Notes under the pieces: generated by a model
Told to the model about the DNA's origin: nothing
What the model saw: the letters and a program-made list of their open reading frames with translations, nothing else
The model's database searches: none
Position numbers and translations under genes: made by a program
DNA from: Escherichia coli
GTDB lineage: Bacteria > Pseudomonadota > Gammaproteobacteria > Enterobacterales > Enterobacteriaceae
Strand: one strand, 5' to 3'
DNA: 64,000 nucleotides
Assembly (NCBI RefSeq): GCF_016026235.1
Contig: NZ_CP065613.1
Shown here: positions 36,433 through 37,510 of the stretch, piece by piece
Layout: each line of letters begins with the position of its first letter
Numbering within the stretch: position 1 is the stretch's first letter

Positions 36433-37510
36433 ACGCCACCGTGTACAGTTGTAAAAAAAAGAGGCACACCCAGATAAGTATGCCTGCCATCAGAACGTTA
36501 TCGATGTAATCTCATTATTTCATTAATAAGATTTTTTGAATAGTAGTTCTACGCAACAGATTAAATATGAACTATTTATTGTGCAGCTTTTCTACAAATC
36601 ATTTTTAATGCGTGTTTTTATCTACATTGATGTGAAAAAATAAATATAAAAGCTATGAGCGACAGGTCGTGTGGGATGTGTGTTACGTCTAATGTTTTAG
36701 TTGTTTTTATTAGTTTGAGATATTTGACATTATTTCTTGCGAGAACGCTTTATTGTGTATCTAATTGATTTTTCTTTTGTTTTTGGTTGGTGAAATTATA
36801 AGGTAGAAGGTGAGATTAGTTTAATATCAATGATATGAATTTATAAATACATATTATTGCAAGGTGTTCTTTAATTTTCTGGTCGTGAGTAAACCATTGT
36901 TAATGAACTCTGCTAATAAATTAAAAATGTTCTTTTGAATAGCTTTTGTTTTTTTGTAAACCTCAGTTTGTTTATTTTGCATTCGTTTGCTGGAGAGTAT
37001 TTCAACAATTTTTATTTTTCGCATAAACTTATTAACAACTTTTTATTATCAATTGGAAATCAATGTAAACTAAAATGTTAGCGAAGCGATAATCTTGTGC
37101 TAAAAAATATTTAAGCATGATGATTAATTAAAGAAGAGTAAAAATAAATCACTGCTAATAAATTATACGAATCGTGTTTAAAGCTCCACGTTGTTTTGGT
37201 CTGACTTATTTTTGTCCTCGTTTCAAGAACCCTTTTCGTATATGCTAACCGTGAGCGGGAGTGAACAAGTCACCATAGCCAGGAACACTAGCGGCGTAAT
37301 TCTTAAGCTGAGTGGCATTTCACCTGCGGTTTATCAGTGCATTCATAGCACCTTCATCAGCCAGATTGAACGAGTCCGCTTAGAATTTGCTGGCGAGGTT
37401 GTCACTATGAAGCATGAGAGTTACCTCAGTGTTTATATAAGGATTCAGCCCCCCTCTCTGGAACGGTAACTCTCAATCTGATCGGTTCCTGCGTTAGTTC
37501 ACATCACGAC

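Follow-up and report, generated by a model that had tools for sequence, protein, structure and literature searches.

Here we analysed a 64,000-nucleotide stretch of an Escherichia coli genome (NCBI RefSeq assembly GCF_016026235.1, contig NZ_CP065613.1; hereafter the window), in which a short inverted repeat lies downstream of betA, the gene for choline dehydrogenase, and next to a segment that is absent from K-12. Its arms, TGAGAGTTACC at 37415-37425 and GGTAACTCTCA at 37465-37475 as read directly from the plus strand, are 11-nt perfect complements with 39 nt between them. The initial annotation had recognized the perfect 11-bp repeat correctly, but had set its second arm at 37466-37476 and its spacer at 40 bp. 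The distance of 35-95 bp past the betA stop that it had given is confirmed as 36-96 nt downstream of the stop codon (37511-37513) in the betA sense, and its placement of the repeat at the edge of an accessory insertion also holds, with the breakpoint of homology to K-12 at 37405/37406, 9 bp from the left arm.

The inverted repeat by itself is unremarkable and not above chance. First-order Markov simulations of the window gave an expectation of 0.755 perfect inverted repeats per 64 kb (arms of 11 nt or more with spacers between 3 and 60 nt), and at least one was present in 52.5% of the simulated windows. The RNA fold of the repeat region showed no extra stability over shuffles (z = 0.08), and an Rfam scan of 36400-37700 at E <= 10 returned no match at the repeat. 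What shows it to be a real feature, as judged from aligned sequences, is its conservation and covariation in homologous copies of an insertion sequence (IS). Based on these, the repeat is very probably the outer stem of a 5'-leader hairpin that belonged to a now decayed IS481-family element of the ISVvu4-like group. The features of the locus, as derived from the sequence and from alignments to active IS copies, are as follows.

37511..39181, minus strand: betA (choline dehydrogenase), with a stop codon that lies within the IS remnant
37476..37517, minus strand: left terminal inverted repeat region, degenerate, corresponding to IS nt 1-42 in the alignment to the active IS
37465..37475, minus strand: 5' arm, reading TGAGAGTTACC on this strand and equivalent to nt 43-53 of the active IS
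37426..37464, minus strand: loop of 39 nt, a region with a predicted inner helix in active copies and degenerate in the betA fossil
37415..37425, minus strand: 3' arm, reading GGTAACTCTCA on this strand and equivalent to IS nt 93-103, ending at the A of a vestigial ATG
37413..37415, minus strand: vestigial transposase ATG, located at IS nt 103 from the sequence and from alignment to the ylbG copy of K-12 and to active copies
37218..37412, minus strand: decayed 5' part of an IS481-family transposase gene, on the island side of the K-12 breakpoint

A decayed insertion sequence at the 3' end of betA

According to the alignments, the region is the left end of a decayed IS, about 300 bp long (window ~37218-37517), lying on the minus strand in the orientation of betA. 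With blastn, IS nt 39-165 matched window 37479-37353 at 77% identity (E = 8e-20) in an alignment that spans the K-12 breakpoint, and with tblastn, residues 44-97 of the transposase matched window 37367-37218 (E = 0.004); homology to the IS reaches about 40 nt beyond the arms on one side and about 200 nt on the other. On the terminal-repeat side, 22 of 42 positions match the active IS in register and ungapped (shuffle p = 1e-4), which sets IS nt 1 at window 37517 and the betA TGA (37511-37513) at IS nt 5-7. In an alignment of 18 sequences the terminal repeat, the leader hairpin, the Shine-Dalgarno sequence with the ATG and the transposase N-terminus follow each other in colinear order in the fossil. 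Its Shine-Dalgarno sequence GAGG is found at 37424-37427, with the last two bases inside the 3' arm and the spacer thereafter, and its transposase frame is closed by a TAA at codon 12 (37380-37382). The TGT tip, the whole 3' part and the right end are gone, while the repeat region is still recognizable.

The fossil can be aligned to the left end of members of the ISVvu4-like group over the terminal repeat, the whole leader and the beginning of the transposase. Its arms are identical to those of copies from E. albertii, E. coli and the genera Erwinia and Serratia and to those of the ylbG copy, and in comparison with ISVvu4-type copies the 3' arm is the same and the 5' arm agrees in 10 of 11 bases. 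It differs from active members of the group in being about 300 bp instead of 1.2 kb long, in being only about 77% identical and in having the in-frame stop at codon 12. An ancient IS copy would thus have inserted at the extreme 3' end of betA, in the same orientation, and subsequently decayed. In addition, the BetA protein ends in ...PVRAKK* in E. coli versus ...PVRR* in most relatives, which is consistent with an IS landing in the last betA codons. A T-run inside the betA 3' end (37514-37519) has 6 or 7 T depending on the strain, and due to this variable length betA is annotated with 1671 or 1689 nt and the extreme C-terminus of BetA is polymorphic. The BetA proteins of Pseudocitrobacter (loci L011 and L012) are 96-98% identical to the E. 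coli protein, and hence closer to it than those of Enterobacter or Citrobacter.

The fossil was not annotated by the Prokaryotic Genome Annotation Pipeline in the genomes inspected, and it represents the single match to this IS in the window; neither terminal repeats nor homology to the IS were found at the left end of the island. A plus-strand open reading frame that runs across the repeat (37191-37469, 92 aa) was rejected as spurious, being antisense to the decayed transposase gene, without a Pfam match and unannotated in the genomes inspected.

Homologous copies in K-12 and on plasmids

A 74-bp stretch containing the repeat is found a second time in K-12, where it precedes the pseudogene ylbG. 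Both arms are exact in this second copy, which also shares the island-side sequence that the betA locus of K-12 is without. ylbG itself represents the N-terminal third of a transposase of the IS481 family (NF033577, E = 2e-25; HTH_29), and the ylbG element comprises IS nt 1-473 with 95.8% identity to active copies (K-12 C600, L091 2145-2615). A sensitive search with window 37406-37513 located a median of two places per E. coli genome, namely the betA and the ylbG fossils. A dispersed repeat of the repetitive extragenic palindrome/bacterial interspersed mosaic element (REP/BIME), enterobacterial repetitive intergenic consensus (ERIC) or miniature inverted-repeat transposable element (MITE) type was rejected on this low number and on the nature of the additional places, which are IS copies that carry a transposase. 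Matches to the IS were present in about 3,600 of 5,426 E. coli genomes, where the sampled rows mostly represent the ylbG fragment, and a copy covering at least 80% of the IS was present in only 77 of the 5,426.

Intact relatives are frequently found on plasmids from Escherichia, Salmonella, Klebsiella, Erwinia, Serratia, Vibrio (annotated as ISVvu4), Photobacterium, Arsenophonus, Advenella and Acinetobacter. The terminal repeats of active copies (TGTATTAG...TGATCTGACA) are imperfect and about 26 bp long, and for ISVvu4 a target duplication of 7 bp was seen. An intact copy on an E. albertii plasmid is 1201 bp long, with TGT...ACA terminal repeats and the ends TGTATTAG...CTAATACA, and it encodes a transposase of 346 aa that reaches 293 bits with NF033577 (cut-off 224). 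Intact copies of Escherichia, Erwinia, Vibrio, Acinetobacter and Advenella have the same hairpin.

Several copies are located directly behind co-oriented host genes: the fossil overlaps the betA stop, the ylbG copy of K-12 starts about 12 bp past the stop of mnmH, and further copies start 1 bp after msrA in Erwinia (L094) and 5 bp after a wgr gene in Arsenophonus (L102). This repeated position may point to gene 3' ends or terminator regions as preferred targets.

Conservation and covariation of the leader hairpin

Among the 18 aligned left ends, no part of the leader is better conserved than the arms. Searching viral contigs with the transposase yielded a further 67 loci, of which 42 had distinct leaders, and over the resulting 58 leaders, 55 of which were correctly anchored, nine distinct arm combinations were found. 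Four of them read as follows.

L131 group: 5' arm TGAGAGTTTCC, 3' arm GGAAACTCTCA
L138 group: 5' arm GTGGGGTTACC, 3' arm AGTAACCCCAT
Arsenophonus: 5' arm AGAAAATTACC, 3' arm GGTAATTTTAT
Acinetobacter: 5' arm AGAAATTTACC, 3' arm GGTAACTTTCT

Across the nine arm combinations, 91.9% of the cells were paired versus 83.0% in column shuffles, and changes had occurred on both sides in 7 of 11 pairs versus 2.2 in shuffles; in neither case did any of 500 shuffles reach the observed value. When the registers were slid, only 21-47% of the cells could pair. The three wobble pairs have, in each case, the G in the 5' arm and the U in the 3' arm when read on the transposase-sense strand, an orientation that fits a sense RNA and not the antisense strand or a symmetric protein site. 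Taken together, the alignments show that base pairing has been kept by compensatory substitutions in this IS group.

The placement of the 3' arm is similarly constrained. In reference-type copies it begins in GAGG and has the A of the ATG as its last base, with register variants of 1-2 nt in the form of an extra A in L123, a 2-nt shift in Acinetobacter and stems that are one base shorter in the Arsenophonus and L138 groups. Inside the loop, an inner helix of differing sequence is predicted in every active copy, and this helix was not recovered by RNAalifold on the MAFFT alignment.

A putative block on transposase translation

The most likely original function of the hairpin, as suggested by folding predictions and by analogy to other elements, is an RNA-based block on transposase translation. 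In live copies the 5' arm is placed just inside the left terminal repeat, and the 3' arm spans the interval from the last two bases of the Shine-Dalgarno GAGG to the A of the AUG. Transcripts with both arms, including those entering by read-through from an upstream host gene, would fold such that the ribosome-binding site is buried, and transposase translation would be kept low as a consequence. Exposing positions -14 to +4 is predicted to cost 12-14 kcal/mol in transcripts that contain the 5' arm, and 4-5 kcal/mol in those that lack it. While homology, anatomy, conservation and base-pair covariation are shown by the sequences, we infer that the RNA hairpin forms and that it represses translation. 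In the window, where the transposase gene is dead, this original function is moot.

A promoter inside the loop was considered as well and dropped, as a sigma-70 consensus scan of the left end of the intact IS, loop included, gave no site; matches of the TTGATA/TACAAA type that can be picked out by eye in the left end are weak and unconserved.

Several points weigh against this interpretation. Depending on where the transposase promoter and transcription start lie, the hairpin may act on all transcripts or only on those that read through from outside. The arm alignment used for the pairing and shuffle tests was built with manual anchoring at the TTACC and GGTAA motifs; RNAalifold, run independently on 15 hairpins aligned with plain MAFFT, returned the same 10-bp stem with six compensatory pairs. 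Covariation is also expected of a dyad-symmetric protein site, and in E. albertii-type and ISVvu4-type copies the right IS end likewise contains the GTTACC of the 5' arm. In addition, since the TGT tip is lost, we can only infer the original insertion point relative to the betA stop. Finally, our search of the literature found neither a published experiment on this IS group nor a published description of translational control for it.

The betA 3' end and the question of termination

The initial annotation had also offered the repeat as a betA terminator with a large loop. As with intrinsic terminators, there is a stem-loop downstream of the stop codon on the sense strand. However, the loop is 39 nt long instead of the typical 3-8 nt, the stem is not rich in G+C (5 of 11 pairs are G-C), no U-tract follows the stem on either strand, and the structure was not detected by a terminator scan and folds no better than shuffles. 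Terminator and promoter consensus scans gave nothing relevant, either in this region of the window or at the left end of the intact IS. In K-12, the hairpin presumably lies at about 325,470-325,490 on the minus strand of NC_000913.3, as estimated from the position of betA. The 3'-end tables available from PMC7815308 contain no end in this interval on the minus strand, the nearest ones listed there being 326,972 (inside betA) and 324,578 (beyond ykgH), although bet expression was probably low under those conditions. Likewise, the 3'-end supplements available from PMC12207403, for which the bet operon was uninduced, have no entry for betA or ykgH. Judged by its loop and the missing U-tract the repeat is not an intrinsic terminator, and its interpretation as the betA terminator is unsupported.

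A related alternative, which we regard as unlikely, is that the hairpin now serves betA in some other way, as a 3'-end structure of the betIBA mRNA that either protects it from 3' exonucleases or contributes to termination of a non-canonical or Rho-dependent type, and that it may have been co-opted after the IS had replaced an ancestral terminator. Its location, 36-96 nt past the betA stop on the betA-sense strand, would suit such a role, and in other genera the betA stop is followed within about 50 nt by canonical GC hairpins, several with T-runs and all unrelated in sequence to the repeat, where E. coli has none. These observations stem from a scan of a genome collection that returned 80 loci, from other genera only and with no Escherichia locus among them; homology to the repeat was not found downstream of betA in any of the 80. 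Variation within E. coli also speaks in favour of a present role. Among 12 haplotypes, all 22 arm positions are invariant, while variation is seen in 13 of the 39 columns of the loop and in 8 of the 35 on the terminal-repeat side (0/22 versus 21/74, Fisher p = 0.0027), with the loop being the most variable segment among E. coli strains, and the stem is part of the minimum-free-energy fold of every haplotype.

On the other hand, the invariance of the arms would be equally explained by intact inheritance from an IS where selection acted on them, or by hairpin-templated repair, and 12 haplotypes are a small sample. The missing U-tract, the fold z-score of 0.08 and the 3'-end tables of PMC7815308, as far as these were available, argue against this alternative as they do against a terminator. 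In its most explicit form, in which the IS removed a canonical terminator of the kind present behind betA in other Enterobacteriaceae and supplied the betA stop, the dead IS hairpin was co-opted as the betIBA 3'-end structure and selection on bet has kept the 22 arm bases while loop, terminal repeat and transposase gene decayed, the proposal seems rather doubtful to us. The hairpin would still be carried by transcripts that leave betA, and a secondary function within the bet 3' untranslated region (UTR) is conceivable.

Subterminal DNA sites as an alternative to an RNA stem

Instead of pairing in RNA, the arms might represent repeated subterminal DNA sites at the left IS end, bound by the transposase or by a host factor, an explanation that we consider improbable. 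It would account for the finding that GTTACC and about 10 following bases are located just inside both terminal repeats in E. albertii-type and ISVvu4-type copies, and symmetric sites would be expected to co-vary too. However, the right-end motif of the L131 and L138 groups (GTCCCC and TTCCCC) does not track the changes that are common to the left-end arms, and an A-to-T change in the 5' arm of the L131 group is mirrored in the 3' arm and absent from the right-end motif. The distal part of the 5' arm (GAGA or GGGG) lies in an insert specific to the left end, yet it co-varies with the 3' arm. In addition, the G.U pairs are compatible only with an RNA of the sense strand, and the 3' arm lies on the interval from the Shine-Dalgarno sequence to the AUG in all copies, both of which favour the leader hairpin over DNA sites.

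The island boundary and the state of K-12

K-12 aligns to window 25353-30353 and again to 37406-42559, and the features of the junction are the following.

30354..37405: segment of 7.05 kb absent from K-12, hyxB-hyxA-hyxR::IS2-ipbA, which is the known fimX/hyx island, with hyxB encoding an autotransporter; its last ~190 bp are assigned to the IS fossil
37406..37408: TAT microhomology at the right breakpoint, with a matching TAT at 30351-30353

The breakpoint falls inside the third codon of the fossil, and all island-less strains sampled have the same junction. The island-side flank is present in about 1,800 of 5,426 complete E. coli genomes and the repeat region in about 5,150. According to the alignments, strains of the K-12 type would have kept only IS nt ~1-113, after a deletion between the two TAT triplets had taken the island together with the remainder of the fossil. 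The island-less state is thus most simply read as a deletion derivative (30354-37405 lost) and not as an empty insertion site, because an IS cannot insert as a fragment of 113 nt and the island-bearing form continues the IS homology for another ~190 nt. Synteny with ykgH downstream of betA was not found in other genera, and hence was of no help with the polarity of the event.

In the initial annotation, the repeat had alternatively been viewed as a scar or junction element that marks the boundary of the inserted block. This is true insofar as it belongs to debris of mobile DNA at the betA-proximal edge of the island, but it was not created by the junction, nor is it a recombination site: the alignment to K-12, which had been proposed as a check, shows both arms to be identical there and in other island-less strains. 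An element that acts in recombination, be it an integration target or scar of the island or a site for the FimX/IpbA tyrosine invertase, is very improbable in our opinion, despite a distance of only 9 bp to the K-12 breakpoint and a Fim-type recombinase gene about 1 kb away. Besides the identity of the arms without the island, homology to the IS runs on past the breakpoint without interruption, IS copies of unrelated genomes that have no such recombinase nearby carry the same hairpin, and the 39-bp spacer is far below known switches, with ipuS measuring 260 bp and hyxS having 16-bp repeats at its borders (PMC6083910). When FimX was overexpressed, genome-wide screens detected inversion at no switches other than fimS, hyxS and ipuS (PMC6458436). 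A Fim-type switch of the fimS/hyxS/ipuS kind and an island attachment site were therefore rejected on geometry, strain distribution and the published inversion screens.

A chance inverted repeat with neither history nor function, for which the 0.755 repeats expected per window and a fold stability no greater than that of shuffles might be cited, can practically be dismissed, and was rejected, since homology and covariation are incompatible with it: dozens of homologous IS copies carry the same arms, with compensatory changes and at a fixed place relative to the terminal repeat and the transposase ATG.

Neighbouring features and other strains

Over 411 bp the window is 100% identical to strain FDAARGOS_943, which has about 5.3 kb of additional sequence between ykgH and betA, annotated with several IS66- and IS600-type elements, that is absent from the window. 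In strain MLI105 (L007 ~3037-3100, equivalent to window ~37441) an IS1 is located within the hairpin loop, after ...ATATAAGG, and the bet operon and the genes following it are gone up to a fragment of a DUF2877-domain gene next to fdrA. From the sequence comparison, the region was rearranged here a second time and independently, no more than about 40 bp from the K-12 breakpoint.

The island itself is degraded in the strain studied here. An IS2 (34018-35291, with a TnpB-like open reading frame at 34386-35291 on the plus strand) interrupts hyxR, and the ipbA/fimX invertase gene (35833-36432) is frameshifted, with a frame of only 127 of about 200 aa. Upstream of the latter, in an AT-rich region, lies an imperfect inverted repeat of 25 nt (80% complementary) at 36585-36609 and 36920-36944, with 310 nt between its arms and a geometry that resembles invertible switches of the fimS type. 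Two terminator-like structures were noted on the other side of the island, namely a perfect palindrome with 13-bp arms (30360-30388) just inside its left end and downstream of hyxB, and a hairpin with 19-bp arms and a 3-nt loop (29441-29481) between ykgG and ykgH.

Significance

The decayed IS would explain the unannotated 'core' segment of about 100 bp that follows betA in about 95% of E. coli genomes, and it implies that betA owes its stop codon and 3' UTR to an IS. It furthermore suggests that island-less strains, including K-12, are deletion derivatives, which is the reverse of the usual picture of island gain. The kind of finding is an ordinary one, as IS fossils and leaders that sequester the ribosome-binding site are both well known. 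New, if modest, are the two points on betA and on the island-less strains together with a leader hairpin over the ribosome-binding site, supported by covariation, in one group of the IS481 family, and this hairpin may represent a candidate for RNA-family libraries. The value of the present analysis lies mainly in annotation and evolutionary history.

Comparison with known translational controls of transposition

The closest experimental parallel is IS200, for which a stem-loop in the 5' UTR was shown to sequester the Shine-Dalgarno sequence, to block 30S binding and thereby to repress translation (PMC4513863). Like the hairpin described here, the IS200 leader is an inverted repeat of about 60-70 nt at the left end with its 3' side over the ribosome-binding site. 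The two differ in that IS200 encodes a transposase of the IS200/IS605 type and not a DDE enzyme of the IS481 family, with no sequence similarity between the elements, and in that IS200 also has a separate terminator hairpin and an antisense RNA.

A second parallel concerns read-through. IS10 and IS50 are known to be protected against activation by read-through by means of a 'fold-back' mechanism, reportedly described by Davis, Simons and Kleckner in 1985 and by Krebs and Reznikoff in 1986. The likeness lies in sequence near the end of the element that pairs, or is here predicted to pair, with the start of transposase translation in transcripts entering from outside. In IS10 and IS50 the element's own promoter is located downstream of the 5' pairing partner; unlike there, no consensus promoter was found in the loop of the present IS. 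Given that copies of this IS are often located behind co-oriented host genes, read-through would be frequent, and it is there that a fold-back protection of the transposase start would matter.

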